Of a stretch of DNA of 64,000 nt, positions 2,485-45,029 are shown one piece after another; position 1 is the stretch's first letter, and each line of letters begins with the position of its first letter. The notes beneath the pieces were generated by a model that saw nothing but the letters and a program-made list of their open reading frames with translations, had not been told where the DNA came from and ran no database searches. Origin of the DNA: an uncultured Planctomycetota bacterium (GTDB taxonomy: Bacteria > Planctomycetota > Planctomycetia > Isosphaerales > Isosphaeraceae); NCBI GenBank assembly GCA_963823665.1, contig CAWGMQ010000006.1, positions 512,001 to 576,000 of the forward strand, given 5' to 3'. The position numbers and the translations under genes were made by a program.

Positions 2485-5400
2485 CTAGGCTTGCCGGAAG
2501 CCCGGCACGAGGCATGAAGCCATCCGGGATGGATTGACGATCGACTGGGCGCGCATCCAGGCCTCGGCCTGCTCGACCATCGCGCGGCCGGTGTCTCCGC
2601 CCCGCAGTTGACCGAGGTGATGCCGCGCCGAGGCGGCGAAGAGGCCCATGTCTGCTATCTCGAATCGCTGTACAGCATCGGCCAGAAGCCGCTCAGCTCG
2701 CACGGTATCGCCCCTGACATTGGCCACAGCGGCCCTGATTCCCTGGGCGTGGGCCCGCGTCCAGGGCAATTGCTGGCGATCCAGACGGCGAGCGGATTTT
2801 TCTGCATGACGGAGCAATGGCCCGGGCCCGGCCGAGACCGCCGCCATCGCAACGGCACAGCGCCCTGCGTGCTGGATCACGTCGGCCTGGACCTGCTCGA
2901 TCCGCAACAACAGCGACGACTGCAAGAGCCGCTCGGTCTCCTTGATCCGACGCCAGGCGGCGGCCGCATCACCGGCGTACGAGTCAATATAAAGACTCCC
3001 ATAATAAAAATTGAGATGCTGGATGTGAAAACCTTGATGCGACCATTCTCCGAGCGCCTGGCGGGCGAACCGGCGGGCGCCTTCGACGTCGTCAAGAGCG
3101 AGGGGGATGAAGGCACCGACATAGGGCCCGGGCGTGGCCAGCATGTAGCGATCGCCGCGCTCGCGCGCCTCGTGGAAGATTTCCTGGCAGCGAGTGCCGA
3201 GCTCGGCGAGCCTCCCGAGCGACCACAGTGACCAGAGGGCGAAGATCCGGGTCGTGTCCAGCTCCCAGATGACGCCCGTGCATCGATCACGGAAGATCGC
3301 TTCGGCGCGGTCCGCGAATTCGAGTGCCCGGCGGTAACGGCCAATCAGGAACTCGGCCGCGCCGGCGGAGAGGCTGGCCATGCCCAGCGCATGAGGGTTG
3401 CCGAGCCGGTCCGCCAGGCTGGTGGCGGCTCGAACCAGCCTTTCGGTCCGGCGCCACACGGGCCGTCCCTGACAGGCAACGTGCACGGCCTCCCAACCCA
3501 GGGCCAGTGCAATCCGCGACGGTTCACCGGCCTCGAGCGCCAGCAGCAGGCTTCTTGTCTGGTAGTCGGCTCCCCGGATCACGTCGACGATGCTGATGCC
3601 GATGGCCACCGATCGAGAAATGTCGATCAGCTCAAGCTTTTCGCGTGGCACTTCGGCCTCGGCGCGCTCGTGGAAGCGCAGGCCGCGCAGCCGGAGGCGT
3701 GCGCGGCTCTTCAGAAGGCGCAAGAGTGCGCGGCGCGGCGTGCGCGGCAGGCTCAGTCCCACGCGGTCAAGAATCGCGCCGAAAGCAGAGAGACCCTCGT
3801 CAATGTGTCCGCTTACCAGGAACTGGTAGGCTGCGCGGCGCTGGAGCTCGATCAGCTCGAGCTGATCGGAGCCCGCGGCTGCCTCCTGGTAAACTCGCGC
3901 CGCTTCGACACTGCGACCGACGTTGGCGAGCGCATCGCCCAGCCGCGTGCGAATCCGTCGCGCCGCGGCGGGGTCGGCCGGGCCCAGCTCCAGCGCGCGG
4001 CGATAGAGCTTGACGGCCCGATCAAAGGCCAGTGCCTCGCTCGCCTCGTCCGCCGAGAGAGCGTAGTAGTGGCCGGCGCTCGACTGCTCACCGGCCCCCT
4101 CGAAGTGCACGGCCAGCGTTTCGGGATCCGCCCCTCCGGCCTGATCCAGCTCGGCGGCCAGACGTCGATTTACTTCACGCAAGCGGTCGGCGTCCAGATG
4201 GTTGACCACTGTCTCCCGGATCCGGTCGTGATAGGTTTCCACCTCATCAAGCGATCCCAGGCCCGTACCTCGGATCAGGTGTTGGGCACGCAAGAGTGTG
4301 AGCCCGGAAAACCCCTGATTGCCCAGATCGGCAGCCTTGCAGGCGATCGCCTGCCGAAGCGGCTGGCCCGCGACGGCAAGGATCTCGAGTAGGGCCAGGG
4401 CCTCCGCCGGCAACCTGCCGATCCGCCGCCCGAGTACGCTGTCGAGACTGATCTGGGTCGACAGTGTGCCGCCTTCGCCCAGCTCGCCTCCCTCATCGAG
4501 GTATTCGACCAGCTCGTAGACGAAGTAAGGGCTGCCCCCCGACTCGCGCACGATCGTCTCGGCGAGGGCAACCGCGGCGGGATCGTCCTGACCAATCAAC
4601 CGCAGTGCCAGCTCGCGTCCCTCAGCGAGTGTGAGCGGCTCCAGCGCGACCTCGCGTTGGTCGCGTGGGGCAGAGCCATCGCTCTCTTGCTGCAGAACGA
4701 TGCGCAGGAAGGGGCTGAGCGCGGCGTATTCGCTCCGGTACGAAGCGACCAGAAGAAGCACCGGTGCGTCGGGTGGGCGCAACAACTCCGAAAGCAGAAG
4801 GGCGCTGTCCAGGTCGCCCCACTGGAGATCGTCGATGGCCAGCACGAGCGGACGACGGTCGCCGATGCGCGCCAGCAGCTCGCGAAGCGCGGCGAAGGCC
4901 CGCCGCCGCAGCTCGAGGCGGTCGAGCGAGGTGTGAGGGCGGCTCGGCGCTTCCGCCACGGCCTCCACTCGCCGCAACACGGGGAAAACTTGAGCAAGCG
5001 TCGACATGTCCCGAGGAATGAGGGCATCGGCCTCACGCCGGGACAGCCGGCGCAGGTAGCGCGAAAGGGCATCGATCAACGTGTCGACCGCCTTGTACGC
5101 CACCGACTCCTGTTCATAGCAGCGCCCGGTCAGGATGACTGCGTCGTCGCGCTCGAACAGCCCCTCGAGGAATCGCTGGATGAGGGAGCTCTTGCCAACG
5201 CCCGAGCGGCCGTGAACGAGCACGGTCACCGTTCCGCCCTGGCACGTGTCCTTGAATGCACAGTCGAGCGCGGCAAGCTGCGGCTCGCGGCCCACGAACA
5301 ACCGGCGCAGAGCGGCCATCCGCGACGATTCTCCCGCGCTTCCTCCCAGCCGTCGCAGGATCTCCTCGCCCGATGGACGTTCACGCGGGTCTCGCCCCAG

Positions 5401-10822: not shown

Positions 10823-11009
10823 AGTCGCCGAGCTGCTCCAGCTCGACCAGCGCCGGAATCAACTCGCGAATCCGTGCGGCCAGCTCCGGGTGGCGTGCCA
10901 TCAGCTCGGTCAGTGCCGGCCGTTCTCCACGACGGAACCGGTCCAGAAACGACTCGACGACCGGTCCCAGGGGATCGTCGTCCGGCGGTTCCATCGATCC
11001 GCCATTCAT
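10758..11009 (-). CDS. N-terminal segment of the ECF-coupled kinase (frameshift near 10822)
   Basis: ATG at 11009 overlaps the ECF stop (ATGA) and has a GGAGG RBS. It encodes ESFLDRFRRGERP..HPELAARIRELIP, an N-terminal module I recognise from planctomycete kinases downstream of ECF sigmas. Confidence 0.8.
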   Translation of the reverse strand: MNGGSMEPPDDDPLGPVVESFLDRFRRGERPALTELMARHPELAARIRELIPALVELEQLGDFERQPHTTLEIQHVRERIRRR

Positions 11010-11638: not shown

Positions 11639-11648
11639 GATGGTTAAG

Positions 11649-11675
11649 ACTGCGCGCGGACACCGATTCGGGACA
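11649..11675 (-). promoter_or_regulatory. Putative ECF-dependent autoregulatory promoter TGTCCCG-N13-GCGCAGT
   Basis: Minus strand reads ttttttct-TGTCCCG-aatcggtgtccgc-GCGCAGT-cttaaccatc-ATG. The same motif and spacing recur at 15212-15238. Confidence 0.65.
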
Positions 11676-11836: not shown

Positions 11837-13210
11837 ATGAACGAACAACTCGAGCCCGGCCTGTCGCTGCCAACGGAACCGAACGAAACCGTCGACGTGA
11901 TCCCGGACGATCGAACCACACCGCCCACCGAAGAAATGCCGCCGGAGGGGCCGAAATCTCGCGAGCCGCGCGGCGCACGAATCGGGCCGAACCTGCCGGG
12001 CTACGAGATCCTCGAGGTGATCGGCCGTGGCGGCATGGGGGTCGTGTACAAGGCACTGCATACGCGCCTCGACCGCCTGGTCGCTTTGAAGATGGTGCTG
12101 GCCGGTGCCCACGCCTCGCCCGAGGAGCTCGCGCGGTTCTCCATTGAATCGCAGGCTGTCGCGCAGCTCCAGCATCCGGGGATCGTCCAGATCTACGAGG
12201 TGGGCGAGCATGATGGCCTGCCGTATTTCTCGCTCGAGTTTGTCTCCGGCGGCAGCCTCGCGCACAAGATCGGCGGAAAGCCGCAGCCGACGCGCGAGGC
12301 CGCGGGGATGGTGCACGAGCTCGCCCTGGCCGTTCGCGAGGCGCACCGGCGCAACATCATCCACCGCGACCTGAAGCCGGCCAACGTGCTCCTGACCCCG
12401 GACGGACGGCCCAAGATCACCGACTTCGGCCTGGCCAAGCGATTGGACTCCGACTCGGAACAGACCCACACCGGTGCGATCATGGGGTCGCCAAGCTACA
12501 TGGCCCCCGAGCAGGCCTGGGGCCAGACCCACGAGATCGGACCCCGCACCGACGTGTACGCCCTGGGCGCGATCCTCTACGAGATGCTCGTCGGCCGCCC
12601 GCCGTTTCAGGGTGCCTCGCCGATCGAGACCATCGAGCTGGTCCGGACCGAGGAACCGGTGCCTCCAACCCGCTTGCAGCCGAAGATTCCCGTCGACCTC
12701 GAAACAATCTGCCTGAAATGCCTGCAGAAAGATCCTGCCAGGCGGTATTCCGACGCGAATTCACTTGCCGAAGACTTGCAACGATTCCTTGAGGACAGGC
12801 CGATTCTGGCACGTCCCGTGGGGACCGCCGAGCGACTGGCACGATGGTGCCGCCGCAACCCGAAGGTCGCCCGGCTCACCGCGACGGTCGCCGGGCTCCT
12901 GGTCCTGGTCGCCGCCGTGATGACCTACGCCGCCGTTTCGCTCAACCGGGCGAATGGACAGCTCGAGGCATCGATTAAAACCGAGTCGGCCGCGCGGAAG
13001 GCGGCCGAGACTAGCGAGCACGCCGCGCTCAAGGCGCGTGACGACGAGGCCGTTGCGCAAGGCAGAGAGCGAGGCGAGAGCGAAAGCCGAGAAGCTCGTC
13101 GCGGTCGCCCTGCTGCTGAACAGGAACGCACTGAATTCCACGCGGACCATCAGCGTCTTGACCCTCAAGCGGCTTCGCGATTTCCCGGGCAGCCAGGATC
13201 TGCGGGATGA
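11837..13210 (+). CDS. Membrane Ser/Thr protein kinase, N-terminal part (frameshift near 13055)
   Basis: IGRGGMGVVY, HRDLKPAN, DFGLAK, YMAPE, DLETICLKCLQKDP, RWCRRNP and a TM helix; GGAG RBS. Confidence 0.93.
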   Translation: MNEQLEPGLSLPTEPNETVDVIPDDRTTPPTEEMPPEGPKSREPRGARIGPNLPGYEILEVIGRGGMGVVYKALHTRLDRLVALKMVLAGAHASPEELARFSIESQAVAQLQHPGIVQIYEVGEHDGLPYFSLEFVSGGSLAHKIGGKPQPTREAAGMVHELALAVREAHRRNIIHRDLKPANVLLTPDGRPKITDFGLAKRLDSDSEQTHTGAIMGSPSYMAPEQAWGQTHEIGPRTDVYALGAILYEMLVGRPPFQGASPIETIELVRTEEPVPPTRLQPKIPVDLETICLKCLQKDPARRYSDANSLAEDLQRFLEDRPILARPVGTAERLARWCRRNPKVARLTATVAGLLVLVAAVMTYAAVSLNRANGQLEASIKTESAARKAAETSEHAALKARDDEAVAQGRERGESESREARRGRPAAEQERTEFHADHQRLDPQAASRFPGQPGSAG

Positions 13211-14525
13211 GCTGGTCAGGACGTCGGTGAAAGAACTGCACGCCAACATGGAAGGCATGGACCAGCTCGGAGCCGTCGGCGCCCACGACAAGGAGGCGGC
13301 GGCGACAGCCACCCGGACGCTCGCCGGGATCTACCAGCAGGCGGCAGGACTGATGGATGATTTCGGACGCTACGACGAGGCCATGCGGTATCTTCGCCAG
13401 ATGGACGACCTGGCCGAATCGCTGGCAGCGAGCAATCCCGGACAGATCCAGGCCAAAAGGCTCCTGGCGATCAGCAAGCTCACGATCGGCCAGTTCGAGA
13501 TGAACCGGTTCGGCGACTCGAAGGCCGCGCTCAAACACCTTCAGCAAAACCTGGAGCTCCGCCGGGAGTACCTGGCAGCCAAACCGGGAGACGACCCGGC
13601 CAAGGATGGGGTCTGCAACGCGCTCGGTGAGCTCGCGCGGGTCTGGTTGAAGCTGGGGAATCCCGGCAAGGCGAGCTCCTACTACAAGGAGGAGATCAAG
13701 CTGCGTGGTGAGATCGGGGTGAAGCTGGCCGGGCAAATCGAATTCCGCCGTCAAGGCGCCGGCCTCGAGGAGAAGCTCGGCGACCTGTCTGTCGAGCTTG
13801 GCGACCAAAGCTCCGCCAAGGACCATTACGACCGCGCGCTCGAGCTCCGCGAAGAGATCGCCAGGCAAAACCCCGGCCACGACCAGGCACAGCGCGACGT
13901 GTTGCTGTCGTTTAACAAGCTCGGCACATTCTACCTGCTCCACCGCAAAAACCCGGCCACGGCCCGGGACTTCTCCGAAAAGGCGCTCGACGGGTTCGTG
14001 CAGCGGCTCAGTGCCGAGCCGGCGAGCGTCGGGGCCAAGCAAGACCTCGCCGCGACCCATTACTTCGTGGGGACCGCCGCCCTCCGCGCAGGCGACCGCA
14101 TGGCCGCCGATCGTCACTACAGCGAATACCGAACGATCTGCGAAGGGCTCGCCGGCAACCCGAAGGCGGAGCTGATCATTCGCGACCTGATGATTGCCCG
14201 CGCGCGCTGCGGCGAGCACAAGATCGCGTCCCAGACCGCAGAGGAACAGATCAAGTCACCCCCGCTCGACGTGCGGGTCTATTACTATGCCGCCTGCGCT
14301 TTCTCCCTCTGCGCCGGCGCCGTGGCCGAGGAGCCGGCCTCGCCGGAGACGCAGGCTCTTGCCAGAAGTTATACCGAGAGCGCCTTCAAGTCGCTTCGCC
14401 TGGCCCTCAAGGCCGGCTGGGAGGGCGTGGTCGACGTCGAGACCGACCCCGATCTCGACGCGATCCGCAACGCCCCCGGGTTCAATGCCATCGTCGCAGA
14501 GTTCCGCAAGGCCGCCGGCAAGTGA
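12954..14525 (+). CDS. TPR region: C-terminal part of kinase gene 11837-14525
   Basis: TPR-like helices and a terminal YYAACAFSLC..LRLALKAGW..ETDPDLDAIR motif. Becomes the coding frame from about 13055. Confidence 0.85.
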   Translation: MDSSRHRLKPSRPRGRRPRLASTPRSRRVTTRPLRKAESEARAKAEKLVAVALLLNRNALNSTRTISVLTLKRLRDFPGSQDLRDELVRTSVKELHANMEGMDQLGAVGAHDKEAAATATRTLAGIYQQAAGLMDDFGRYDEAMRYLRQMDDLAESLAASNPGQIQAKRLLAISKLTIGQFEMNRFGDSKAALKHLQQNLELRREYLAAKPGDDPAKDGVCNALGELARVWLKLGNPGKASSYYKEEIKLRGEIGVKLAGQIEFRRQGAGLEEKLGDLSVELGDQSSAKDHYDRALELREEIARQNPGHDQAQRDVLLSFNKLGTFYLLHRKNPATARDFSEKALDGFVQRLSAEPASVGAKQDLAATHYFVGTAALRAGDRMAADRHYSEYRTICEGLAGNPKAELIIRDLMIARARCGEHKIASQTAEEQIKSPPLDVRVYYYAACAFSLCAGAVAEEPASPETQALARSYTESAFKSLRLALKAGWEGVVDVETDPDLDAIRNAPGFNAIVAEFRKAAGK

Positions 14526-15211: not shown

Positions 15212-15238
15212 TGTCCCGGCAGTACCCCTTTGCGCAGT
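15212..15238 (+). promoter_or_regulatory. Putative ECF-dependent promoter of the giant gene, TGTCCCG-N13-GCGCAGT
   Basis: tttttcg-TGTCCCG-gcagtaccccttt-GCGCAGT, ending 113 nt before ATG 15352. Both 7-mers and the spacing match the copy upstream of the ECF gene. Confidence 0.65.
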
Positions 15239-15351
15239 TCTAGCAGTACACAGTACTCCCGATCGGAACAGCAACGAGACTGAACAAGAGATCATTGACG
15301 TCGAGATTGCATCGTGGTTTTACCTCTCCTCTCGAAGCAGAAGGTTGTACG

Positions 15352-32170: not shown

Positions 32171-35100
32171 GTGCTCATTCTGGGCCACGATCCGACGCTG
32201 GTGGCCTCGACGGGCATCAACACGATCGATCTCAGCCAGACGCCCCAGAACGTCACGCTCAACCTCGGCAGCCAGACGGTTCAGACGGTGGACAGCGCCG
32301 GGGACATCGTGCTTCTGCAGGGCACATTCCAGAACGTGATCGCCGGCCCCGGGGACGACATCCTTACCGCGGCTAACGGCGTCAACAGCTCGCTCATTGG
32401 CGGCTCCGGCAATGACATCATCTATGGCTCGGGATCGGGGAACGACTCGATCGTGGGTGGCACGGGCAACGACACCTTGGTCGGTGGCGGCGGGAACGAC
32501 ATCATCTACGGCTCGTCATCGGGGAACGACTCGATCGTCGGTGGGACTGGGAACGACACGATCACTGGCGGCGGTGGTAATGACATCATTTATGGGTCGT
32601 CGTCGGGTAACGACTCGATCGTGGGTGGGACGGGCACCGACACGATCATGGGCGGCGGTGGTAACGACATCATTTATGGATCGTCGTCGGGCAACGACTC
32701 GATCGTAGGCGGCACCGGGAACGACACGTTGGTTGGTGGCGGTGGTAACGACATCATTTATGGATCGTCATCGGGGAACGACTCGATCGTGGGCGGGACG
32801 GGGAACGACACGCTGGTTGGCGGCGGCGGGAACGACATCATCTATGGCTCGGGATCGGGGAATGACTCGATCGTGGGTGGGACAGGGAACGACACGCTCG
32901 TCGGCGGTGGCGGCAACGACATCATTTATGGCTCGGGATCGGGGAACGACTCGATCGTGGGTGGGACGGGGAACGACACGCTCGTCGGCGGTGGTGGCAA
33001 CGACATCATCTATGGCTCGGGATCGGGGAACGACTCGATCGTGGGTGGGACAGGGAACGACACGCTCGTCGGCGGTGGTGGCAACGACATCATCTATGGC
33101 TCGGGATCGGGGAACGACTCGATCGTGGGTGGGACGGGGAACGACACGCTCGTCGGCGGTGGTGGCAACGACATCATCTATGGCTCGGGATCGGGGAACG
33201 ACTCGATCGTGGGTGGGACGGGGAACGACACGCTCGTCGGTGGTGGTGGCAACGATATCATCTATGGCTCGGGATCGGGGAACGACTCGATCGTGGGTGG
33301 GACGGGGAACGACACGCTCGTCGGTGGTGGTGGCAACGACATCATCTATGGATCGGGATCGGGGAATGACTCGATCGTGGGTGGGACGGGGAACGACACG
33401 CTCGTTGGCGGCGGCGGTAACGACATCATCTATGGCTCGGGATCGGGGAATGACTCGATCGTGGGTGGGACGGGGAACGACACGCTCGTCGGCGGCGGCG
33501 GTAACGACATCATTTATGGCTCGGGATCGGGGAACGATTCGATCGTGGGCGGCACCGGGAACGACACGTTGGTTGGTGGCGGCGGCAACGACATCATTTA
33601 TGGGTCGGGATCGGGTAACGACTCGATCGTGGGCGGCACCGGGAACGACACGTTGGTTGGTGGCGGCGGCAACGACATCATTTATGGGTCGGGATCGGGT
33701 AACGACTCGATCGTGGGCGGCACGGGCAACGACACGTTGGTGGGCGGCGGCGGCAACGACATCATTTATGGGTCGTCGTCGGGAAATGACTCGATCGTGG
33801 GTGGGACTGGGAACGACACGATCACGGGCGGCGGCGGCAACGACATCATCTATGGATCATCATCGGGGAACGACTCGATCGTGGGCGGCACGGGCAACGA
33901 CTCGATCACCGGCGGCGGGGGTAATGACATCATCTTCGGCGGGCCCGGAAACGACTCGATCGTGGGTGGCACCGGCTACAACACGATCAGCGGCGGTGGT
34001 GGCAGCGACATCATTTCTGGAGGGCCGAACGACTGGCTGATCGAGACTGACCCAGTCGGAAACACGGTGACTCCCACCACGGTGACCCTGACCAACTCGT
34101 CGCTGGCCATGCCGGGATACGGGACGGATACCATCATCGGCATCACCAACATCGTCGTCGGGCTGGGCGACGGCAAGATCGAGCTGGACGCCAGTCATGA
34201 CACCATGCCGCTGGTGCTGGTCGCCGGGACGGGCGACGACACGATTCTGGCTGGGCCGGGTGACGACACGATGTATGCGGGGTCGGGCACCGACTCGCTG
34301 GTCGGCGGCGGCGGCAACGACGTCTACGTCTTCGGCCCGCTGGCGCAGGGAAACGTCACGGTGAATGATGGGTCGAACACGAACAACACGATGGACTTCT
34401 CGCTCTTTGGCGCGGGCATCAATCTCGATCTCCAGGCGGTTGGCCCGCAGGCTGTGAGCCCGGGACTGTTGAACCTGACCCTTACCAACCCGCTCAGTAT
34501 CAACAAGGTTGTCGGCACGTCGTACCCCGACACGATCCTGGGCAACGGCCGGAACGATACGCTGATCGGCAACGGCGGCGACAACTACCTGAACGCCCGA
34601 GGCGGCGCGGCCCTGGTCGAAGGATTCCAAACGCAGGTGGTCTACCTCGACTTCCTGCCAGGGGTGGTCGACTACTCGGCGCAGTCCACTCGGGACGCCA
34701 TCCAGGCCGGCATCGGGGCGATCTATTCGGCGTTCAATGTCACCTTTACGCAGACACAGCCGACGAGCGGGCCGTACGAGACGCTCTATTACAACGTCCC
34801 GGCCGGCAGCCTGCTTGCGGGCGAGGCGACGGAGCTCGACTGGCGAAACCTCGACCTGGACGGGTCGGCCTCGATCGACATTAGCCAGTTCCTGGGCGGG
34901 CCTGACTACCCGGCAGACACTCTGACGAATGTCATTAACATGTCGGTGACGATCGGCGCTCACGAGCTCGGACATCTCACCGGCCTCATCCACGGCGATT
35001 CGTTCGGCCCTATCGGCGCTGGTGTTTACGCGAACCTCGCCGACAATTCGTACCTTGAGGGCTTCACCCCGCCCTACCCCGGCCCGGCGAACGCCGTCGA

Positions 35101-38100
35101 CACGGTGTACGACGTGATGGCGTCTCCGGCGTCGGTCGGCACTTCGCTCTTCGATGCGGCCAACGTGACATTCTTCGGCGAGCGCGACGACATTTCCCTG
35201 GCGTTTGCCGACTCGGGCACGACGACCAACGAGACGCCTGGCGACCCCAATACGTCGGTCGCGACGGCCCAGCCCCTGACTCTCGCACCGCTGTCCGTTC
35301 CGAACACGGTGTTGATTGGCCAGGGGACCGGCGACTACTTCGACGTGACCGCCGCCGATGTCGTCGGCTCGATCGGGCTCGGCGCCAACGGGCAGAGCAA
35401 CTCCGACTACTACGCTATCACCGCCACGGCGGGCGAGCTGCTCAACTTCCAGGTCCGGTCGCAGACTTTGACTCGCGATAACGACGATTCGATCGATTCG
35501 GAGCTGACAATCTACGAAGCAGACGGCACGACTGTGGTCCCGTACTATGGCAGCGCGTCGGGCGCGTTCAACGACGGTGGCTTCCAGGACGCCGATGCCG
35601 TCCTGTACGACCTCACGATGCCGTACACGGGCACTTACTACGTGAAAGTGAGCACCATCGTCGTCACCGACTCGTTCGGCATTGTTCATAACTCCGAAGT
35701 CGGCGACTACGAGCTGTTCATGTACAGCTTCGCGGCCACGCCTTTGGGAGGCACGCCTGCCACGAACGGCGATACGCTCGTCGGCAGCTCGGGGCAGGAT
35801 ACGCTGATCGGCAGCTCGGCGAACGACTTGATCGAAAGCGTGCCGGGCGATTCGGTCGTTTCCGGCTCGGGTGCCGACACGATCGACACGCTGCCGTACA
35901 ACATCGAAATCGCCGACCCCGCGCTCCAGTTGGGAAGCCCGGTTTCCCTTGCCGGCAGCTTTGTGGCCTCGAACCCGGGCATGGCCTACACGTACGACTG
36001 GCACGTGGCCAGCAGCAATGGTCAGGTGATCGCCGACGCCCGCGGGACGGCCGCGGTCGACAACGGGGCGGGGACGACCGCGTTTCAGTTCACGCCCACG
36101 TCCGCGGGCGCTTACACCATCACGCTCACGATCACCGACGGCTACGGCGGAGTCAACCAGGCGACGCTCGAGGAGACGGCCGGGACAATCACGCCCTTCA
36201 CCACCCAGATCGGGACCGGCGCGGGCCAGATCACTGGGATTCTCGGCACGCCGACCAGCTTGAACGCGACGGCCACGGGCACGTACGCGGTCGCGTCTTA
36301 CGCCTGGGTCGTCTCGGCCCCCGCCGCGGCGACAACGCCCGCGCGGGGATATGACTCCTCCTACTGCTTCACACCGACGTCCGCCGGGAATTACACCGTC
36401 ACCATGACAGCGACCGACACCAACGGGGACGTGTCGGTGTCGAGTCTCACCGTCATCGTGCCGTTTGTCGCCCCCTCGGCGCAGATCGTTGGAGTGCCGG
36501 CGAACGAGTACGTGCCCGAGGGGTACGCGTTCTCCCTCGCCGGAATTGGCAACGACCCTACCCAGGGGGACGACCTCACCGAATCGTGGACCGTCACGGC
36601 CGGCGACGGCTCCGAGGCGCCGTACACCCAGTCGGGCCCGAACGTGACGTACACGCCCGACGACATCGGGTCTTACACCGTCACGCTCGATCTGCTCGAT
36701 GCCAGCGGCCAGGTCGTTGCTTCAACCTCACAGCAGATCCTTTCGATCGGAGTCGCTCCGATGGCGACGATTTCTGGGGGACCGACGGGAGGGACGACCA
36801 CCGAGGGTACGACCCTTGCATTCTCTGGCGCGGCCAGCAGCCCGAGCACCGTCACAACGGCCAAAGGGTTCCTCTACACCTGGGGCGTGACGCTCGGCAC
36901 CTTCATTTACGTCGCCCCGACGACCCCAACGGTCAACCCCACCAACTTCAGCTTCACGCCGGGCCAGGCGGGGACCTACGTCGTGTCGCTCTCCGTCACA
37001 GACAATCACGGGTTTACCAGCCTGGCCGCCACCCAGACGGTTGAGGTCGCCGCAGTCGCGCCTTCGGTCACGATCACGGGCCTGCCGGCCGACAGCGTCA
37101 CTGCGGGAACGACGGTTGCTCTCGGCAGCATTGTGACTGACCCGAGTGCCGTGCTCCAGAGTGCCGGTTTCTCCGAGTCGTGGAACGTTCAGTTCGGCGG
37201 AGCAACGTACGGGCCGTTCTACGGGCCGGCGCTAAATCTTACGCTGGGCTCCATCGGTAGCTATACCGTGAACTTCGTGGCCACGGATGCCGAAGGCGTC
37301 TCGTCCACGACGACTGAGATCGTCACCGCCGCCGACACCGCTCCGGTCGTCACGCCCGCGGCCTCGCCCACAGCGCAGGCGCCGGAGCAGGCGACCAAGA
37401 GCGCGTACAACCTTGGCAGCGTCGTGGGCCCTGGCCTCGACCAGAGCGGCGGGATTGTGACCGTGAACTGGGGCGACGGAACGGCCGCAACCTCGTTCCC
37501 GATCTCGTCGCAGGGCTCACTCGGCTTCCAGGCCCACGCCTACGAGCTGCCCGGCAACTACCAGATAACCGTCACCGTGACCGACGCCTACGGCCTCTCC
37601 GGTTCCGAGTCGTTCACGACGACCGTGGCCCCGGTCGCACCGTCGCCGGAGATCCAGAGCGCGCCGGCTTCGATGAACGCAGAATCGTCCGTGATTCTGA
37701 GCAGCAGCGTCACCGACTTCAGCCAGGCCGAGAATGCCGCGGGCTACACGTACGCCTGGTCCGTGCTGCGGAATGGCGCGCCTTACACCCTCCCGGGCAA
37801 CCCGTCGACAGACGGCCCGAGCTTGCAGTTCACTCCCGTGCTCGGCGGCAGCTACACGATCAGCCTCTCCACGACCGATTCGAGCGACAGCGTGGGAGTC
37901 GCGCCACCGCAGACGATCGTCGTCAACGATCTGAACACGACCACCAGCCTGTCCTCGTCGGGCAGTCCGTCCGTCAGCGGCCAGAGTGTCGCTTTCACCG
38001 CCACGGTGAGCATCGCGGGAGCGGGCAGCAACGCCGTGGTCAACCCGAGCGGCACGGTCACCTTCTATGACAGCGGCGTAGCGATCGGCACCGCAACGCT

Positions 38101-41100
38101 GACCGGCACGGCCACCGACACCGCCACGTTCACCACGAGCACGCTGAGCACGGCCACCCACCCCATCACGGCTGCGTACACCAGCGGCGACGGCAGCTTC
38201 AACGCCAGCGCGCCGTCCTTGGCAATCAACCAGGGGGTCAACAAGGCCAACACCACGACCAGCGTGGTCAGCTCGGGCAGCACGGTTTCCGGCCAATCGG
38301 TGACCTTCACGGCCACGGTGAGCATCGTCAGCCCCGGCACCAGCGCCGTGGCCAACCCGACCGGCACGGTCAACTTCTACGACGGCACCACGCTGCTGGG
38401 CAGCGGGGCACTCAACGGCACCGATACGGCGACCTTCACCACCAGCACGCTGTCGACCGCCGCCCACCAGATCACGGCAACGTACGCGGATGACACCAAC
38501 TTCAATCCCAGTACCTCGGCCGCCATCACGCAGACGGTGAGCAAGGCCAGCACAGCCACCAGCGTGGTCAGCTCCGGCAGCTCGGTCTCCGGCCAATCGG
38601 TGACCTTCACCGCTACGGTGACCATCGTCAGCCCAGGCACGAGTGCCGTCGCCAAGCCGACCGGCACGATCAACTTCTACGACGGCTCCGTGCTGCTAGG
38701 GGGCGGGGCGCTCAGCGGCACCGCCACCGATACGGCCACCTTCACCACCAGCACCCTGTCGACAGCCAGCCACCAGATCACGGCGACCTATGCCGATGAC
38801 ACCAACTTCAGTCCCAGTACCTCGGCCGCCATCACCCAGACGGTGAGCAAGGCCAGCACAGCCACCAGCGTGGTCAGCTCCGGCAGCACGGTCTCCGGCC
38901 AGTCGGTGACCTTCACCGCCACGGTGAGCATCGTCAGCCCGGGCACCAACGCCGTGGCCAAACCGACCGGCACGGTCACGTTCTACGACAACGGTGCCGC
39001 CATCGGCACCAGCACGCTCAGCGGCACGGCCACGGATACGGCCACCTTTACCACCAGCACGCTGAGCACCGCCACTCACCCCATCACAGCCGCCTACACG
39101 GGCGGCGATGGAAACTTCAACGCGGGCACGCCCTCCGCTTCGATCAGCCAGGTTGTCAACAAGGCGTCTACCACCACGGTGGTGAGCTCCTCGGCCAACC
39201 CGTCGGTCTCCGGCCAATCCGTGACCTTCACGGCCACGGTGAGCATCGTCAGCCCCGGCACCAGCGCCGTGGCCAACCCCACCGGCACGGTCACCTTCTA
39301 TGACAACGGCGCCGCCATCGGCACCGGCACGCTCAGCGGCACGGCCACGGATACGGCCACCTTTACCACCAGCACGCTGAGCACCGCCACTCACCCCATC
39401 ACAGCCGCCTACACAGGCGGCGATGGAAACTTCAACGCGGGCACGCCCTCCGCTTCGATCAGCCAGGTTGTCAACAAGGCGTCTACCACCACGGTGGTGA
39501 GCCCCTCGGCCAACCCGTCGGTCTCAGGCCAGTCGGTGACCTTCACGGCCACGGTGAGCATCGTCGGCCCGGGCACCAACGCCGTGGCCGAACCGACCGG
39601 CACGGTCACGTTCTACGACAACGGCGCCGCCATCGGCACCGGCACGCTCAGCGACACGGCCACGGATACGGCCACCTTTACCACCAGCACGCTGAGCACC
39701 GCCACTCACCCCATCACAGCCGCCTACACGGGCGGCGATGGAAACTTCAACGCGGGCACGCCTTCCGCTTCGATCAGCCAGGTTGTCAACAAGGCGTCTA
39801 CCACCACGGTGGTGAGCCCCTCGGCCAATCCGTCGGTCTCCGGCCAGGGGGTGACCTTCACGGCCACAGTGAGCATCGTCAGCCCGGGCACCAACGCCGT
39901 GGGCAAACCGACCGGCACGGTCACCTTCTATGACAACGGCGCCGCCATCGGCACCGGCACGCTCAGCGGCACGGCCACGGATACGGCCACCTTTACCACC
40001 AGCATGCTAAGCACCGCCACTCACCCCATCACGGCCGCCTACACGGGCGGCGATAGCAACTTCAACGCGGCCGCGCCGTCGGCGGCGATCAACCAGGTTG
40101 TCAACAAGGCGTCCACCACCACGGTGGTGATCTCCTCCGCCAATCCGTCGGTCTCCGGCCAGGGGGTGACCTTTACGGCCACGGTGAGCATCGTCAGCCC
40201 AGGCACGAGCGCCGTGGCCAACCCCACCGGCACCGTCAACTTCTACGACGCCTCCACGCTCCTGGGCAGCGGCACGCTCAGCGGCACCGGCACCGATACG
40301 GCCACCTTGACGACCAGCACCCTCTCGACCGCCAGCCACCAGATCACGGCGACGTATGCCGGTGATACCAACTTCAATTCCAGTACCTCGGCCGCCATCA
40401 CCCAGACGGTGAACAACCCCAGCATGACCTCGGGCTCGATCTACGTTCTGGACCCGACGGCCGGCGGGGCCCTCGCGCTCTCTGGGAACGCCATCATCAA
40501 CGTCCTCGGCAACATCATCGTGGATTCGAGCTCGTCAACCGCCATCACCGCGAGCGGAAACGCCTCGGTCAAGGGCGCGGTCATTCAAGTCAAGGGGGGC
40601 GTGCAGAAGAGCGGGAACGCGACCTTCAGTCCGGCGCCGACCACAGGGGCACCGGTCGTTGCCAACCCGCTCGCCGGACTGACCGCTCCCACTTACTCAG
40701 GCACACCCATCTCGGAGACGCTCAGCGGGAACTCGACGGCCACGATCAATGCCGGCGTGTATAGCCAGATCACGGTCTCAGGCAATGCCAGCCTGACACT
40801 CAACCCGGGTATCTACATCATCGCCGGCGGTGGCCTCTCGGTATCCGGCAACGCGAACATCACCGGAACGGGCGTGATGATTTATAACACCAAGAGCAGC
40901 ACAGGCACTTACGGCAGCATCACCTTGAGCGGCAATGGAACAATCAAGCTGACCGGGCCCACGACCGGGGCGTACGCCGGCATTCTGATCTTTCAGGACT
41001 TGAGCAACTCGAAAGCCCTGACGTTCAGCGGCAATGCCATGCAAGGGATCACCGGCACGATCTACGCACCATCAGCACAGCTCGTCGAGAGCGGCAACGC

Positions 41101-42868
41101 CCAGGTCGGCAGTACCACAAACCCACTCTCGATCGTCGTCGATACGTTGACAATCAGCGGCAACGCAATCGCGAACGCCCTGAGCTTGTCCTCGCCCGCG
41201 GGGACGGTCGCGTACACCCCGGCCCAGATCCGGGCCGCCTACGGCATTGACAACCTCACGCTCGACGGCACCGGCCAGACCATCGCGATCGTCGATGCCT
41301 ACGACGACCCGGCCATCTACCCCGCCCTGGACGCGTTTGACACTGAGTTCGGGCTGACGTCCGCCGGAGCGACACTCCTCGACCAGTATGGCCCGGCTTC
41401 GTCGTTCCTGACTGTCCTCAACCAGAACGGCCAGGCGACTTCGCTGCCGGGGACTGACCCGAACGGCGCCGGTACCAACAACTGGGAGGCGGAGGAAACG
41501 CTCGACGTCGAGTGGGCGCATGCCATCGCACCCGGGGCCCAGATCATCCTGGTCGAGGCGAATAGCCAATCCCTGCCGGACCTGATGGCCGGCGTGGCCA
41601 CGGCAGCGAATCAGCCGGGCGTGTCGGTGGTCTCGATGAGCTGGGGATTCGCCGAGGGACAAGCGGTATTTGCCAGCGATGAGGCGACCTATGACGGTGT
41701 TTTCACCACACCGGGCGTGACGTTCGTGGCGAGCACCGGCGACTACGGCGCCGCTGATCCCGAGTACCCCGCCTACTCGCCCAACGTTCTCGCGGTCGGT
41801 GGCACAAGCCTCACGCTGAACGCCGATAACTCGTATAACAGCGAGACCGGGTTCGGCTACGAGTCGAGCGCGCTGGGCACGTTCATCGGCAGTGGCGGTG
41901 GCATCAGCCTTTATGAGCCTGAGCCGGCCTACCAGGAGGGTGTCCAGTCCACCGGCAAACGGACCATCCCCGACGTCTCGCTCGTTGCCGATCCGGCCAC
42001 GGGAGCATGGATCGCCGACCCGTACAATGTGTCAGGCAGCAACCCATTCGAGATCGTGGGCGGCACGAGCTTGGCGGCCCCTTGCTGGGTTGCTCTCGTC
42101 GCCCTCGCCAACCAGGGACGTGCCGCCGCGGGCGAGCCCGCGCTCGATAGAGCGAGCCCCACCGACACCCAGCAAGCCCTCTACAGCCTGCCCCAGAGCG
42201 ATTACCACGTCATCAGCAGTGGAAGTAATGGTTACTCCGCGGCCGCCGGCTACAACCTGGTCACAGGCCTCGGCACGCCCGTGGCCAACGTGCTGGTCAC
42301 CGACCTGGTTGCCTACCAGGGGCCTGGAACTTCGTACTCCGGCCCTGCTGTCGGAGCCATGCAAAACGCCGAGCTTGCCAACATACGGGCGAGCGCCGGC
42401 GGCCCCACCGACGTTTTCAGCGTGTTTGATTCCTTCACGTTCGGCAGCAACGGTACCGGTCAGGAAATCGCGCGCGCCGCGAGCCCGACGAATCGCGCCA
42501 GCCAGGCAGTGGACGCAGCCAGCCGCGGTGTGACCAGGCAGGACCCGGACATCGCGAACGTCGCCGAAGTTACCGAGTCGCTCGCGCCTTTCGGCGAGCG
42601 CCAGGCTCTGACATCAGACTTCGTTCCGCCGGGCATGGGGCCTGGTCTCGCGTCACTGGATTTCGCGCTGGAAGATATGAGCATTGCTATTGATACGATG
42701 GCCGACTCGGTGAAAACGGTTGTCCGGATCCGACTCGGTTCGCGCTCGGTGAGAGTTCGAGAGACCTCTCGAGCCCAGCAAAAGCGACCGGTTCCAGTCG
42801 TCGACCCTGCCGCCCTTCTTGCGCTGCTTGGCAGCGGATGGACCCCGCGAGACGGCGGCAGACACTAG
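32171..42868 (+). CDS. Giant extracellular protein, part 3 of 3 (RTX Ca-binding array, metzincin motif, PPC/PKD-like, 8 Ig-like repeats, S53 peptidase)
   Basis: Frame open from about 32008. GGxGND repeats; HELGHLTGLIH; SVSGQSVTFTATV Ig repeats; EETLDVEW, STGD and GGTS sedolisin motifs. Confidence 0.9.
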   Translation: MLILGHDPTLVASTGINTIDLSQTPQNVTLNLGSQTVQTVDSAGDIVLLQGTFQNVIAGPGDDILTAANGVNSSLIGGSGNDIIYGSGSGNDSIVGGTGNDTLVGGGGNDIIYGSSSGNDSIVGGTGNDTITGGGGNDIIYGSSSGNDSIVGGTGTDTIMGGGGNDIIYGSSSGNDSIVGGTGNDTLVGGGGNDIIYGSSSGNDSIVGGTGNDTLVGGGGNDIIYGSGSGNDSIVGGTGNDTLVGGGGNDIIYGSGSGNDSIVGGTGNDTLVGGGGNDIIYGSGSGNDSIVGGTGNDTLVGGGGNDIIYGSGSGNDSIVGGTGNDTLVGGGGNDIIYGSGSGNDSIVGGTGNDTLVGGGGNDIIYGSGSGNDSIVGGTGNDTLVGGGGNDIIYGSGSGNDSIVGGTGNDTLVGGGGNDIIYGSGSGNDSIVGGTGNDTLVGGGGNDIIYGSGSGNDSIVGGTGNDTLVGGGGNDIIYGSGSGNDSIVGGTGNDTLVGGGGNDIIYGSGSGNDSIVGGTGNDTLVGGGGNDIIYGSSSGNDSIVGGTGNDTITGGGGNDIIYGSSSGNDSIVGGTGNDSITGGGGNDIIFGGPGNDSIVGGTGYNTISGGGGSDIISGGPNDWLIETDPVGNTVTPTTVTLTNSSLAMPGYGTDTIIGITNIVVGLGDGKIELDASHDTMPLVLVAGTGDDTILAGPGDDTMYAGSGTDSLVGGGGNDVYVFGPLAQGNVTVNDGSNTNNTMDFSLFGAGINLDLQAVGPQAVSPGLLNLTLTNPLSINKVVGTSYPDTILGNGRNDTLIGNGGDNYLNARGGAALVEGFQTQVVYLDFLPGVVDYSAQSTRDAIQAGIGAIYSAFNVTFTQTQPTSGPYETLYYNVPAGSLLAGEATELDWRNLDLDGSASIDISQFLGGPDYPADTLTNVINMSVTIGAHELGHLTGLIHGDSFGPIGAGVYANLADNSYLEGFTPPYPGPANAVDTVYDVMASPASVGTSLFDAANVTFFGERDDISLAFADSGTTTNETPGDPNTSVATAQPLTLAPLSVPNTVLIGQGTGDYFDVTAADVVGSIGLGANGQSNSDYYAITATAGELLNFQVRSQTLTRDNDDSIDSELTIYEADGTTVVPYYGSASGAFNDGGFQDADAVLYDLTMPYTGTYYVKVSTIVVTDSFGIVHNSEVGDYELFMYSFAATPLGGTPATNGDTLVGSSGQDTLIGSSANDLIESVPGDSVVSGSGADTIDTLPYNIEIADPALQLGSPVSLAGSFVASNPGMAYTYDWHVASSNGQVIADARGTAAVDNGAGTTAFQFTPTSAGAYTITLTITDGYGGVNQATLEETAGTITPFTTQIGTGAGQITGILGTPTSLNATATGTYAVASYAWVVSAPAAATTPARGYDSSYCFTPTSAGNYTVTMTATDTNGDVSVSSLTVIVPFVAPSAQIVGVPANEYVPEGYAFSLAGIGNDPTQGDDLTESWTVTAGDGSEAPYTQSGPNVTYTPDDIGSYTVTLDLLDASGQVVASTSQQILSIGVAPMATISGGPTGGTTTEGTTLAFSGAASSPSTVTTAKGFLYTWGVTLGTFIYVAPTTPTVNPTNFSFTPGQAGTYVVSLSVTDNHGFTSLAATQTVEVAAVAPSVTITGLPADSVTAGTTVALGSIVTDPSAVLQSAGFSESWNVQFGGATYGPFYGPALNLTLGSIGSYTVNFVATDAEGVSSTTTEIVTAADTAPVVTPAASPTAQAPEQATKSAYNLGSVVGPGLDQSGGIVTVNWGDGTAATSFPISSQGSLGFQAHAYELPGNYQITVTVTDAYGLSGSESFTTTVAPVAPSPEIQSAPASMNAESSVILSSSVTDFSQAENAAGYTYAWSVLRNGAPYTLPGNPSTDGPSLQFTPVLGGSYTISLSTTDSSDSVGVAPPQTIVVNDLNTTTSLSSSGSPSVSGQSVAFTATVSIAGAGSNAVVNPSGTVTFYDSGVAIGTATLTGTATDTATFTTSTLSTATHPITAAYTSGDGSFNASAPSLAINQGVNKANTTTSVVSSGSTVSGQSVTFTATVSIVSPGTSAVANPTGTVNFYDGTTLLGSGALNGTDTATFTTSTLSTAAHQITATYADDTNFNPSTSAAITQTVSKASTATSVVSSGSSVSGQSVTFTATVTIVSPGTSAVAKPTGTINFYDGSVLLGGGALSGTATDTATFTTSTLSTASHQITATYADDTNFSPSTSAAITQTVSKASTATSVVSSGSTVSGQSVTFTATVSIVSPGTNAVAKPTGTVTFYDNGAAIGTSTLSGTATDTATFTTSTLSTATHPITAAYTGGDGNFNAGTPSASISQVVNKASTTTVVSSSANPSVSGQSVTFTATVSIVSPGTSAVANPTGTVTFYDNGAAIGTGTLSGTATDTATFTTSTLSTATHPITAAYTGGDGNFNAGTPSASISQVVNKASTTTVVSPSANPSVSGQSVTFTATVSIVGPGTNAVAEPTGTVTFYDNGAAIGTGTLSDTATDTATFTTSTLSTATHPITAAYTGGDGNFNAGTPSASISQVVNKASTTTVVSPSANPSVSGQGVTFTATVSIVSPGTNAVGKPTGTVTFYDNGAAIGTGTLSGTATDTATFTTSMLSTATHPITAAYTGGDSNFNAAAPSAAINQVVNKASTTTVVISSANPSVSGQGVTFTATVSIVSPGTSAVANPTGTVNFYDASTLLGSGTLSGTGTDTATLTTSTLSTASHQITATYAGDTNFNSSTSAAITQTVNNPSMTSGSIYVLDPTAGGALALSGNAIINVLGNIIVDSSSSTAITASGNASVKGAVIQVKGGVQKSGNATFSPAPTTGAPVVANPLAGLTAPTYSGTPISETLSGNSTATINAGVYSQITVSGNASLTLNPGIYIIAGGGLSVSGNANITGTGVMIYNTKSSTGTYGSITLSGNGTIKLTGPTTGAYAGILIFQDLSNSKALTFSGNAMQGITGTIYAPSAQLVESGNAQVGSTTNPLSIVVDTLTISGNAIANALSLSSPAGTVAYTPAQIRAAYGIDNLTLDGTGQTIAIVDAYDDPAIYPALDAFDTEFGLTSAGATLLDQYGPASSFLTVLNQNGQATSLPGTDPNGAGTNNWEAEETLDVEWAHAIAPGAQIILVEANSQSLPDLMAGVATAANQPGVSVVSMSWGFAEGQAVFASDEATYDGVFTTPGVTFVASTGDYGAADPEYPAYSPNVLAVGGTSLTLNADNSYNSETGFGYESSALGTFIGSGGGISLYEPEPAYQEGVQSTGKRTIPDVSLVADPATGAWIADPYNVSGSNPFEIVGGTSLAAPCWVALVALANQGRAAAGEPALDRASPTDTQQALYSLPQSDYHVISSGSNGYSAAAGYNLVTGLGTPVANVLVTDLVAYQGPGTSYSGPAVGAMQNAELANIRASAGGPTDVFSVFDSFTFGSNGTGQEIARAASPTNRASQAVDAASRGVTRQDPDIANVAEVTESLAPFGERQALTSDFVPPGMGPGLASLDFALEDMSIAIDTMADSVKTVVRIRLGSRSVRVRETSRAQQKRPVPVVDPAALLALLGSGWTPRDGGRH
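32399..34020 (+). repeat. 84-bp (28-aa) tandem array of RTX/haemolysin-type Ca-binding repeats, 18 full units plus a degenerate tail
   Basis: Unit GGGGNDIIY-GS(G/S)SGNDSIV-GGTGNDTLV. First unit starts at 32399 and the 19th at 33911 (18 x 84 bp later). Confidence 0.92.
37935..40415 (+). repeat. Eight tandem bacterial Ig-like (Big_3-type) repeats of about 300-315 bp
   Basis: Eight TT..SS..SVSGQ(S/G)V.FTATV..P(T/S)GT(V/I).FYD..ITA.Y units. Units 4-7 are near-identical with 315-bp periodicity. Confidence 0.88.
41210..42315 (+). other. Peptidase S53 (sedolisin/kumamolisin-like) catalytic domain within the giant protein
   Basis: YTPAQIRAAYG, GQTIAIVDA, ETLD (Glu/Asp), SMSWG, STGD (oxyanion Asp), YPAYSPNVLAVGGTSL, PDVS, GGTS (Ser), TGLGTP. 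Confidence 0.88.
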
Positions 42869-42986: not shown

Positions 42987-45029
42987 ATGTCATTTACGGC
43001 ATCGATTCACGGGCTGAAGAGAATTGTCGTCCGCAGCGGGCGTGTTCAGCGAGCCAGAACCCGCCGGTGCGCTGTTAGCGCGCGGCGCTCCTTCGTCGCA
43101 CGTTTAGAGACGTTCGAAGATCGAACTTTGCTCAGCACCTTCACGGTGGCCAACCTGAACGACAGCGGCACCGGCTCGCTGCGGGCAGCCATCGCGGCTG
43201 CAAGCAGCGGGGATACGATCGCGTTTGCCAGGGGACTTCGCGGCACCATCACGCTGACAAGCGGCGAATTGCTCGTCCCTGACAGCGTCACCGTCAGCGG
43301 GCCGGGGGCCAATGAGCTTTCCGTGAGCGGCAACAATGCCAGCCGGGTGTTCGAGATCGCCGCCGGCCAGAACGTGACCATCAGCGGCCTGACGATCACC
43401 CACGGATCTGCCTCCGCCGAGGGCGGCGGCATACTGAACGACGGCGCTGATCTGACGCTGTCCGGGGTCGACCTCAGCCAGAACGTGGCTTTCGAGAGCG
43501 GCAGCAGCGGCGCCCAGGGCGGTGGCATTCAGAGTCTGGACGGCACTCTGGTGATCACCAACTCAAAGATCACCGGCAACCAGGCGCTCGGCGGTGCCGG
43601 CGCATCGGCATCCGGCGAGGGCAGCGGCGGCGGCATCTTCGTCACTGCGGGCACTGCGATGATCAGTAACAGCATCATCAGCGGCAACCTGGCTCAAGGC
43701 GGTGACAACAGCAGCGATGGCTTCGCGAGTGGAGGGGGTCTTTTAGCGGCGGCGCCGACCACCCTCACCTCCTCCAGCATCACCGGCAACCAGGTTCGCG
43801 GAGGCCAAGACGCGCCCGACAACGGATCCGAAGGGGGCGGACTGGAGATCTTTGATACGACCGTAGCGATGACGGGGTGTACCGTCAGCGGCAATCTGGC
43901 CGCCGGTGGCGACGGCGGGACTGGGCCATACGTCGGCACCGCCGAAGGGGGCGGTATCAACATGTTTGGCACCGTCACCATCTCTGGAAGCACCTTCGCG
44001 CAGAACCAGACTCTCGCTGGCAGCGGTGGCGAGAGCGGTCAAGGCAACCCGGAAGCTTTCGAGGACTATAGCTTCGGGGGCGCCATTGCAAATACGGAGG
44101 GCAGCCTGAACATCACCAACAGTAGCTTCAACTACAACAAGGCCAACGGCGGCAACAACTCCACGGCCACCGGGGCCGACTTTGGAGCGGTCGGAGGTGC
44201 CGAGGGAGGCGCTCTTTACAATGAGCTTGGTAGTACGGCCACGCTCTCGCTCTGCAGCTTCAACCACAATGTGGCCCAGGGGGGCGATGGCGACACCGGC
44301 AGCGGAATGGTTGTGCTGGTCGGCGAAGGAATGGGAGGCGCGATCGTTTCGGGCTACGGCACCAGCTTGGCCCCGAACACGCTCACCGTCAGCAGCAGCA
44401 CGTTCATTGCGAACAGTGCGCAGGGCGGTGACAACGACGACGGCAACGCCAGCGTGTCGGGCCTTGTCGGCGCCGGGGTCGGCGCCGGAATCGCGAACTA
44501 CGCGGGGGGCAGCGCGATAGTCAGCGGCAGCGTGCTCTTTAGCGGCCAAGCCACGGGCGGTACCGGCAACATCGCCGGAGGCGTCGGGGCTGTCTTCGCC
44601 GGCCTCGGCGCGGGGGGCGGCATCTTCAATTATCTGGGGAACTACGATTCATCGGGATACGGCCTCTTCACTACCAGCTCCGTCAGCGTGACGAGCAGCA
44701 CGCTTTCCCGCGACCAGGCCAACGGCAGCGGCGCCAACGCCGAGGGCGGCGGCATCGCCAACGTGTCCTCGGCAATGACCACGGTGTCGAGCGGCATCCT
44801 GATCCTGAATGAGGCGAACGGTGGGGGCGCCGCCGGACTAGGCGGTGGCGCCTACAATGATTCCAGCTCGACTCTGGCATTCACGCAATCCTTGGTGACT
44901 CAGAATCAAGCCGACGGCGGACCGGGAATTGGCGGCGGGATTTATAGCCTCGGGACGTTCACCTTTGATGCCAATACGTTCATCGTGTTCAACCACGCGT
45001 CCACGAGCGGCGATAACATCGGCCCATGA
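42987..45029 (+). CDS. Planctomycete-type extracellular Gly-rich beta-helix (Pmp-like GGGI repeat) protein
   Basis: AGGAG RBS before ATG 42987; Arg-rich leader + LETFEDRTLLS; GSLRAAI cap; repeated N.A.GG..GGG(I/L) units; no autotransporter barrel visible. Confidence 0.85.
   Translation: MSFTASIHGLKRIVVRSGRVQRARTRRCAVSARRSFVARLETFEDRTLLSTFTVANLNDSGTGSLRAAIAAASSGDTIAFARGLRGTITLTSGELLVPDSVTVSGPGANELSVSGNNASRVFEIAAGQNVTISGLTITHGSASAEGGGILNDGADLTLSGVDLSQNVAFESGSSGAQGGGIQSLDGTLVITNSKITGNQALGGAGASASGEGSGGGIFVTAGTAMISNSIISGNLAQGGDNSSDGFASGGGLLAAAPTTLTSSSITGNQVRGGQDAPDNGSEGGGLEIFDTTVAMTGCTVSGNLAAGGDGGTGPYVGTAEGGGINMFGTVTISGSTFAQNQTLAGSGGESGQGNPEAFEDYSFGGAIANTEGSLNITNSSFNYNKANGGNNSTATGADFGAVGGAEGGALYNELGSTATLSLCSFNHNVAQGGDGDTGSGMVVLVGEGMGGAIVSGYGTSLAPNTLTVSSSTFIANSAQGGDNDDGNASVSGLVGAGVGAGIANYAGGSAIVSGSVLFSGQATGGTGNIAGGVGAVFAGLGAGGGIFNYLGNYDSSGYGLFTTSSVSVTSSTLSRDQANGSGANAEGGGIANVSSAMTTVSSGILILNEANGGGAAGLGGGAYNDSSSTLAFTQSLVTQNQADGGPGIGGGIYSLGTFTFDANTFIVFNHASTSGDNIGP

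Follow-up and report, generated by a model that had tools for sequence, protein, structure and literature searches.

Organization of the locus

The DNA analysed here is a 64,000-nt stretch (the window) of an uncultured Isosphaeraceae bacterium and corresponds to positions 512001–576000 of contig C6 in a genome (G000) of 16.46 Mb in 12 contigs. It carries genes for an extracytoplasmic function (ECF) sigma factor and a receptor kinase (K1), and a giant exoprotein gene that shares a promoter-like motif with the sigma factor gene and is its probable target. G001 denotes a second genome of the same genus and other G numbers denote genomes of the family, of which 121 were searched. A sequence-only reading of the stretch had proposed that three Ser/Thr kinases and the sigma factor form one undescribed system controlling a mega-adhesin; all genes named in it were found in the window by open reading frame (ORF), Pfam and NCBIfam scans.

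The sigma factor gene (11638–11006, minus strand) encodes a 210-aa ECF62-like protein. Its best NCBIfam model by far was that of a planctomycete subfamily, TIGR02984 (Sig-70_plancto1), with 152 bits, which is under the cut-off of 183.75. Region 2.2 reads DPSDVIQE (D46-P-S48-D49-V-I-Q-E), and Ser48, D46 and D49 are invariant in all 18 aligned sigma homologs. The stop codon overlaps the start codon of the gene of the cognate kinase K1 (11009–6657, minus strand, approximately 1450 aa when read through) as ATGA at 11009–11006. K1 consists of a conserved three-helix N-terminal domain, a Hanks kinase domain, one transmembrane (TM) helix, WD40 repeats and TPRs. The coupling of the sigma factor to a TM kinase with WD40 and TPR repeats was thus recognized correctly from sequence, as were the two other kinases: divergently oriented K2 (11837–14525, plus strand, approximately 900 aa when read through) with a kinase domain, one TM helix and TPRs, and a soluble kinase-STAND ATPase (6543–2485, minus strand) without TM helix, which combines a kinase domain with AAA_16, including a Walker A motif (GRSGVGKS) and Walker B. 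In each of the three kinases, the catalytic Lys is in place, as are the Gly loop and the HRD, DFG and APE motifs. As had also been stated, no separate anti-sigma gene lies within the locus.

The giant exoprotein gene (15352–42868, plus strand) would encode approximately 9,170 aa; the 27.5-kb surface protein gene of the sequence-only reading exists in this read-through form, whereas the assembly shows three ORFs in three frames (15295–24546, 24513–32042 and 32171–42868). Its product starts with an Arg-rich signal motif, LEKRMMLA, and continues with long beta-helix repeats containing a LamG insert (encoded at about 19135–19470). Further towards the C-terminus follow PKD (about 30680), 37 RTX-type nonapeptides (about 32200–33970), a zincin domain, PKD/Ig domains, eight Big_3_5 domains and an S53 peptidase domain. 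The RTX_toxin model reached 250 bits against a threshold of 1000, from the Ca-binding repeats only. The zinc-binding motif HExxHxxGxxH (34961–34999, plus strand; HELGHLTGLIHGD) is accompanied by a Met-turn, as in metzincins; look-alikes in the Atlas belong to Reprolysin/M10, and a PDB sequence search with this region gave no match. The serine-carboxyl peptidase domain (41333–42283, plus strand) matches sedolisin with an E value of 1e-16; the catalytic Ser and the oxyanion Asp align, and the Glu/Asp pair was placed by eye. The predicted two proteases are therefore present, both with intact sites.

A second secreted repeat protein of 680 aa (42987–45029, plus strand) shares its N-terminal signal motif and cap with the giant. 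Its beta-helix fold is predicted from repeats, and Pfam gave no match. The gene starts 118 nt past the giant gene with no plus-strand terminator in the gap and is probably co-transcribed with it. The Arg-rich signal motif, ExLExRxLL, is presumably the one known as Planc_extracel. Signal motifs were detected by a custom regular expression and a profile rather than by PF07595 (Planc_extracel), which did not match window proteins at E 0.001; its 20-position model found one site in the whole genome and is too short to map signal motifs.

Frame breaks and conservation of the gene order

Frame breaks were located in the giant gene (near 24475 and 32005), in K1 (about 10820 and 9010), in K2 (about 13050) and in the unrelated hutF gene (about 46540), all of them slips of one or two bases. 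They are mostly assembly errors, because in G001 a single 4551-aa ORF spans the 32005 break and both K1 (1471 aa) and hutF are intact, and because two short-read contigs with zero substitutions relative to the window show a single one-base gap over each K1 break. For K2, this is less certain, since the gene is broken in G001 at nearly the same place, via different indels; K2 orthologs of other genera are single ORFs of approximately 1000–1100 aa. The sole check on the 24475 break was repeat continuity, with no orthologous comparison. Most breaks (9010, 13029–13056, 24475 and 32005) sit at GCGC-type runs and may reflect systematic long-read error at methylated sites, which could explain the shared K2 break.

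The genes for the sigma factor, K1, K2, the STAND kinase and the giant are all syntenic in G001, where the STAND kinase gene itself is frame-broken, two tandem K1 copies follow one sigma factor gene and the giant is shorter in its beta-helix part. The four-gene order was found only in this genus; beyond it, G059 has the compact arrangement described below.

A promoter-like motif precedes the sigma factor and giant genes

The motif TGTCCCG-N13-GCGCAGT is located at 11649–11675 on the minus strand, ending 10 nt before the sigma ATG, and at 15212–15238 on the plus strand, 113 nt before the giant ATG. A T-rich tract precedes it at both sites. These are exactly the two occurrences in 16.46 Mb, and the reversed control pattern gave none. 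Both copies are kept in G001, where the spacer of the sigma copy has diverged and the boxes are unchanged. By general knowledge of ECF promoters, the spacing would fit such a promoter with a near-leaderless sigma transcript.

As the pattern had been read off these two sites, it was tested independently with matrices. With a matrix built from nine sigma-upstream sites of other loci, the giant site scored 32.0 bits compared with a control maximum of 17.5. A second matrix, restricted to the boxes and free of this genus (10 sites from other genera, one of them mis-picked), gave 24.1 bits for the giant site and 23.5 bits for the sigma site; the best of 1.6 million control positions reached 16.4 and the next best position in the window 12.9.

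In the 121 family genomes, the strict pattern yielded 10 matches in eight genomes of other genera versus one control match. Three of these are sigma self-promoters by position, one is divergent from a sigma factor gene, three lie directly behind a K1-like kinase gene (one of them weak), one precedes a giant gene as in the window and two are of unclear placement. The compact form in G059 has the order motif, sigma factor (77%), K1 (72%), motif and three signal-motif genes that are 54–70% like the 680-aa gene, whose homologs thus stand directly under the motif. Paired sites also occur at G001:C5, G000:C4, G000:C7, G095 and G055. The last base of the −10 box (T or A) agrees between the self-site and the neighbour site in all six pairs with that box (the window, G001 C4, G001 C5, G000 C4, G059 and G095); the variants track sigma sequence groups and are confounded by kinship.

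The genes for K2, the STAND kinase and the 680-aa protein have no motif upstream. Among 17 other giant paralogs in G000, no site with a 13-nt spacer reached 14 bits and two weak sites with a 14-nt spacer were seen; inheritance of the motif by all giants was rejected on the basis of these 17 paralogs.

Further sites were noted in passing. Two near-identical motif-like sites, which score less than the matrix threshold and whose −35 box is the variant TGTCACG, lie 264 bp apart at G000:C4:890209 and 890473. At L194–L195 (G001:C5:826001–866000), the order is motif, K1, motif and giant with zincin, followed by a K2-like kinase, and the stretch from the first motif to K1 showed no sigma factor gene. 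At position 1613 of locus L183 (G059:C5), one STAND kinase ortholog is directly preceded by a weak motif-like site that scores 18.4 bits and has a 12-nt spacer and a poor −35 box; this is one of nine such loci, and the site may be due to chance.

Sigma–kinase modules across the genome

The planctomycete sigma model has 154 matches in G000 (150 of the 456 candidates being scored). Of these matches, 58 are strong, with at least 129 bits, and 50 of the 58 have a +1 kinase; a divergent kinase occurs in four of the 58 modules. The same genome holds approximately 30 paralogous beta-helix giant loci and 20 S53 loci. Because of this abundance, and because the layout is that of ECF62 and TM kinases with WD40 or TPR arrays are common in the phylum, adjacency alone proves little. 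We therefore compared 20 kb around the sigma factor genes with 40 evenly spaced control windows on the eight largest contigs; seven of the control windows were moved by 200 kb owing to overlap with sigma windows. The fixed ExLExRxLL expression found 39 sites (one spurious) in 68 sigma-region loci and 12 in the 40 controls. With a profile from all seeds, a signal-motif gene was detected in 33 of 57 sigma windows versus 12 of 40 controls (p=0.008).

The position of the signal-motif genes is a stronger signal than this window-level enrichment. Around the 57 other modules, 11 such genes are divergent within 2 kb, 0.86 being expected (eight of the 11 by the regular expression alone), and 14 lie on the same strand 2–6 kb downstream, just behind the kinase gene, compared with 1.7 expected. 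The strand bias is partly geometric. Separately, S53 exoprotein genes were seen within 10 kb of four of the 57 other modules (G000:C3:1364176, C4:818577, C5:1180984 and C11:924905) and in none of the 40 control windows.

K2 and the STAND kinase

Of 30 K2-like genes, 13 lie within 20 kb of a giant N-terminal cap among the cap matches listed, with 1.1 expected. This count excludes the window, the G001 ortholog and K2-like genes of genomes outside the cap search; the listing lacks a further 42 cap matches, and the genomes are related to each other. The closest K2 orthologs are those of G063 and G066. Like K2 of the window, each lies directly before a giant gene, and no sigma factor of this type is listed in their vicinity (150 of 179 candidates scored for G066); ortholog contexts were judged from coordinates. 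The K2 family thus travels with giant beta-helix genes, often without such a sigma factor, and is tied to giants, not to the ECF. This linkage is a separate lead, of which no description was found in the literature searched. As a side observation, four of five K2-like paralogs of G000 lie within 22 kb of a giant cap (C6:33852, C8:509151, C8:785169 and C10:926144), and at C8:785169 a different ECF-like gene (46 bits) is placed between kinase and giant.

STAND kinase homologs occur in 80 of the 121 genomes. In all nine other genome contexts fetched, the homologs (57–88%) have no sigma factor, K1 or giant gene upstream, and none of the 57 other sigma modules of G000 has a STAND kinase beside it. 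It is a neighbour only and stands outside the conserved unit.

Comparison with known systems

All statements in this section on published systems refer to the available parts of the cited sources. ECF62 is described as a planctomycete ECF group with a +1 kinase, one TM helix, WD40 and no anti-sigma gene (PMC7826278, Casas-Pastor 2021), a layout that the sigma factor of the window shares. In the available supplement, its predicted promoter motifs are not conserved and no target is named (PMC7826278); the window locus differs in having a subfamily motif and a target slot. The kinases of ECF62 s1 and s2 are fused to WD40 and those of s1–s3 have an N-terminal zinc finger (PMC7826278), whereas K1 has a Cys-free helical N-terminus. 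The locus is filed as ECF62-like only, because the zinc finger motif HxxxCxxC was found in none of 34 readable +1 kinases. ECF217s1 likewise joins an ECF and a membrane kinase to a neighbouring exoprotein, here a Planc_extracel/dockerin/TPR protein in the conserved context (PMC7826278); it is a different ECF group (Rhodopirellula, Pirellula), with no promoter link reported in the part available. Since both this neighbour and the ECF62 layout are on record, "undescribed" was too strong a term for the locus.

In ECF43, represented by EcfK/PknS of Xanthomonas citri and EcfP/PknT of Vibrio parahaemolyticus (PMC13147305, PMC8999054, PMC8103513), activation of the sigma factor comes from a TM Hanks kinase encoded nearby, as we propose for the window, and what is switched on serves the envelope or defence. 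ECF43 sigma factors lack the acidic DxxD and are switched on by Thr phosphorylation, whereas the sigma factor of the window keeps DxxD with an invariant Ser inside and so has neither the uncharged motif nor the phospho-Thr of that group. The targets differ as well, an exoprotein being the candidate here and the type VI secretion system or the polymyxin regulon being the targets there. According to the reviews, groups other than ECF43 retain such charges, and their mechanism may differ (PMC13147305, PMC8999054, PMC8103513).

TM Ser/Thr kinases with WD40 or TPR arrays are common in Planctomycetota (PMC11032199); K1 and K2 have the commonest kinase architecture of the phylum, and the available text links none of these kinases to target genes. 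Planctomycete giant genes are known whose predicted products are surface proteins of very large size, in some cases with peptidase domains, as in the window; no regulator is given for them in the parts seen of these reports (PMC5352709, PMC12673574, bioRxiv 2023.11.21.568195). Unlike the giants of Omnitrophota, that of the window has no SecA or glycosyl-transferase modules. No promoter or target of ECF62 was reported in the literature searched; Jogler 2012, Wiegand 2020 and Iyer 2020 lay outside its coverage and may bear on novelty. The pair itself is of a known kind; what the locus adds is a newly defined promoter-like element and a giant gene as the likely target.

Proposed regulation and alternative explanations

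The model that we infer, from transcription at the motif, phosphorylation and the signal to the export route and function of the giant, builds on the gene anatomy, the motif with its placement and the gene linkages. Its core would be a two-gene switch of sigma factor and K1 with a copied promoter. Judged by its single TM helix and by the pattern published for the family, K1 would span the inner membrane with the WD40 and TPR repeats outside. An envelope or contact signal would cause K1 to activate the co-translated sigma factor; the simplest way would be phosphorylation of the invariant Ser48, which lies in region 2.2. The sigma factor would then read TGTCCCG (−35), 16 nt and CAGT (−10) at two places: at the near-leaderless start of its own gene, which would place sigma factor and K1 under positive feedback, and at the giant start, giving the giant and probably the 680-aa protein behind it. 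The giant, as output, would be an exported protein of great length, a rod of beta-helix and Ig parts that carries Ca-binding repeats, a zinc protease and, at its C-terminus, an acid serine protease. It could serve in attachment and either cleave proteins at the surface or process itself. K2 would belong to an older pairing of K2 with a giant, beside which the sigma–K1 cassette came to lie in this genus, and the STAND kinase would be a bystander.

We consider direct control of the giant gene by the adjacent sigma factor probable. Several results weigh against it. Family-wide, two of 34 sigma/neighbour pairs share at least 12 of 15 box positions versus 13 of 1802 non-cognate pairs, and promoter matching overall gave p=0.12, with the pair of the window (14 of 15) being the best and with four sigma factors left out that could not be placed. 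An unseeded Gibbs motif search in 21 neighbour genes found nothing above shuffles. The close sigma homologs at G000:C8, G008:C16 and G007:C387 have a self-site and no second site in the DNA fetched. With a profile seeded from controls only, the enrichment of signal-motif genes fell to 26 of 57 versus 12 of 40 (p=0.14) and the excess vanishes at stricter cut-offs, which favour the training set. Finally, the sigma factor keeps both acidic residues of DxxD, and therefore the charge-restoring logic of ECF43 need not apply. The claim for the motif consequently holds for this sigma subfamily and not for all 58 sigma factors.

For the activation step only, and compatible with direct control of the giant gene, the three-helix N-terminus of K1 might tether the sigma factor at the membrane in an anti-sigma-like manner until signalling frees it, phosphorylation of Ser48 being secondary. 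This domain is Cys-free, occurs in 26 of the 34 readable +1 kinases and is absent from K2 and the STAND kinase; the retained DxxD and the zinc finger at the same place in published ECF62 kinases (PMC7826278, in the part available) point in the same direction. The absence of HxxxCxxC from all 34 kinases argues against it. K1 residues 1–62 gave a predicted three-helix model with a pLDDT (predicted local distance difference test) of 82, whose best fold match (Z 5.0) was to unrelated helical proteins, and no anti-sigma family was among the Pfam, PDB sequence, Atlas, Foldseek and VIA-align matches. An anti-sigma role may exist even where no family matches, and we regard such tethering as a tentative possibility.

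It is unlikely that the motif is a real promoter read by a paralogous sigma factor encoded elsewhere, so that sigma factor, K1 and giant are co-regulated and none controls another. At least three more sigma factors of G000 (C4, C8 and C5) have near-identical self-sites, which is a further point against direct control; in G001, no sigma factor was found next to one K1 with motif and giant, and a 13-kb contig of G084 carries a giant with motif and has no sigma factor. On the other hand, the agreement of the last −10 base in six of six pairs and the lack of a 13-nt-spacer site at the 17 other giant paralogs speak for the adjacent sigma factor.

That three kinases and the sigma factor form one conserved system, as the sequence-only reading had it, is improbable. 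The synteny in G001 and the linkage of K2 to giants would agree with it, but the unlinked STAND homologs in nine of nine genomes and at all other modules of G000 largely refute the part concerning this kinase, divergent kinases are rare among the sigma modules, and the closest K2–giant pairs have no such sigma factor listed nearby. What stands of the earlier claim is control of the giant, most likely by the ECF, on the evidence of the motif, its recurrence in other genera and the genome-wide adjacency; joint control by three kinases does not. Very improbable, too, is chance adjacency with the second motif copy as an inert relic of local duplication: the abundance of sigma factor, giant and S53 loci in one genome and the restriction of the four-gene order to this genus would allow it, but the two sites have only the boxes in common, not spacer or flanks, and sites placed in this way are met again in several genera, in front of different target genes. 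That the giant represents three genes or a decaying pseudogene is hardly credible, since the assembled ORFs, the 24475 break lacking an orthologous check and the K2 break in both genomes of the genus are set against the G001 read-through at 32005, the short-read correction of K1, the break in unrelated hutF and the intact protease sites.

A candidate target, the first that is testable, can thus be offered for a sigma type whose targets have been unlisted. For planctomycete sigma factors linked to kinases, the available sources go no further than predicting phosphorylation, and the locus supplies a precise 27-nt element and a named target. With G059, a relative with a compact version, questions of promoter and regulator become directly testable. 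In a broader and rather doubtful picture, large soil planctomycetes would hold portable sigma–kinase cassettes by the dozens, each with its own promoter code, and a promoter copy would capture an exoprotein gene, giving a combinatorial sensor-to-exoprotein switchboard. Here the captured giant would have come with its own kinase, K2, so that two receptor kinases would gate one surface appendage, and one of the two might respond to the giant or to the products of its cleavage.

Neighbouring genes

Upstream of the locus (45–2433) lie a Uma2 endonuclease-like gene, a 134-aa gene without Pfam match and a beta-lactamase-family (PF00144) gene. At the other end (53425–63949, minus strand), genes for a MoxR-like AAA protein, DUF5682 and a CoxE-type vWA protein resemble a MoxR–vWA cluster, which includes two large genes (59476–61356 and 61334–63949) without Pfam or NCBIfam matches. 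Positions 45667–52405 contain a complete histidine-utilisation cluster of hutF, hutI, hutH, hutG and hutU, in which hutF carries a one-base slip and which is syntenic in G001 at 87%.

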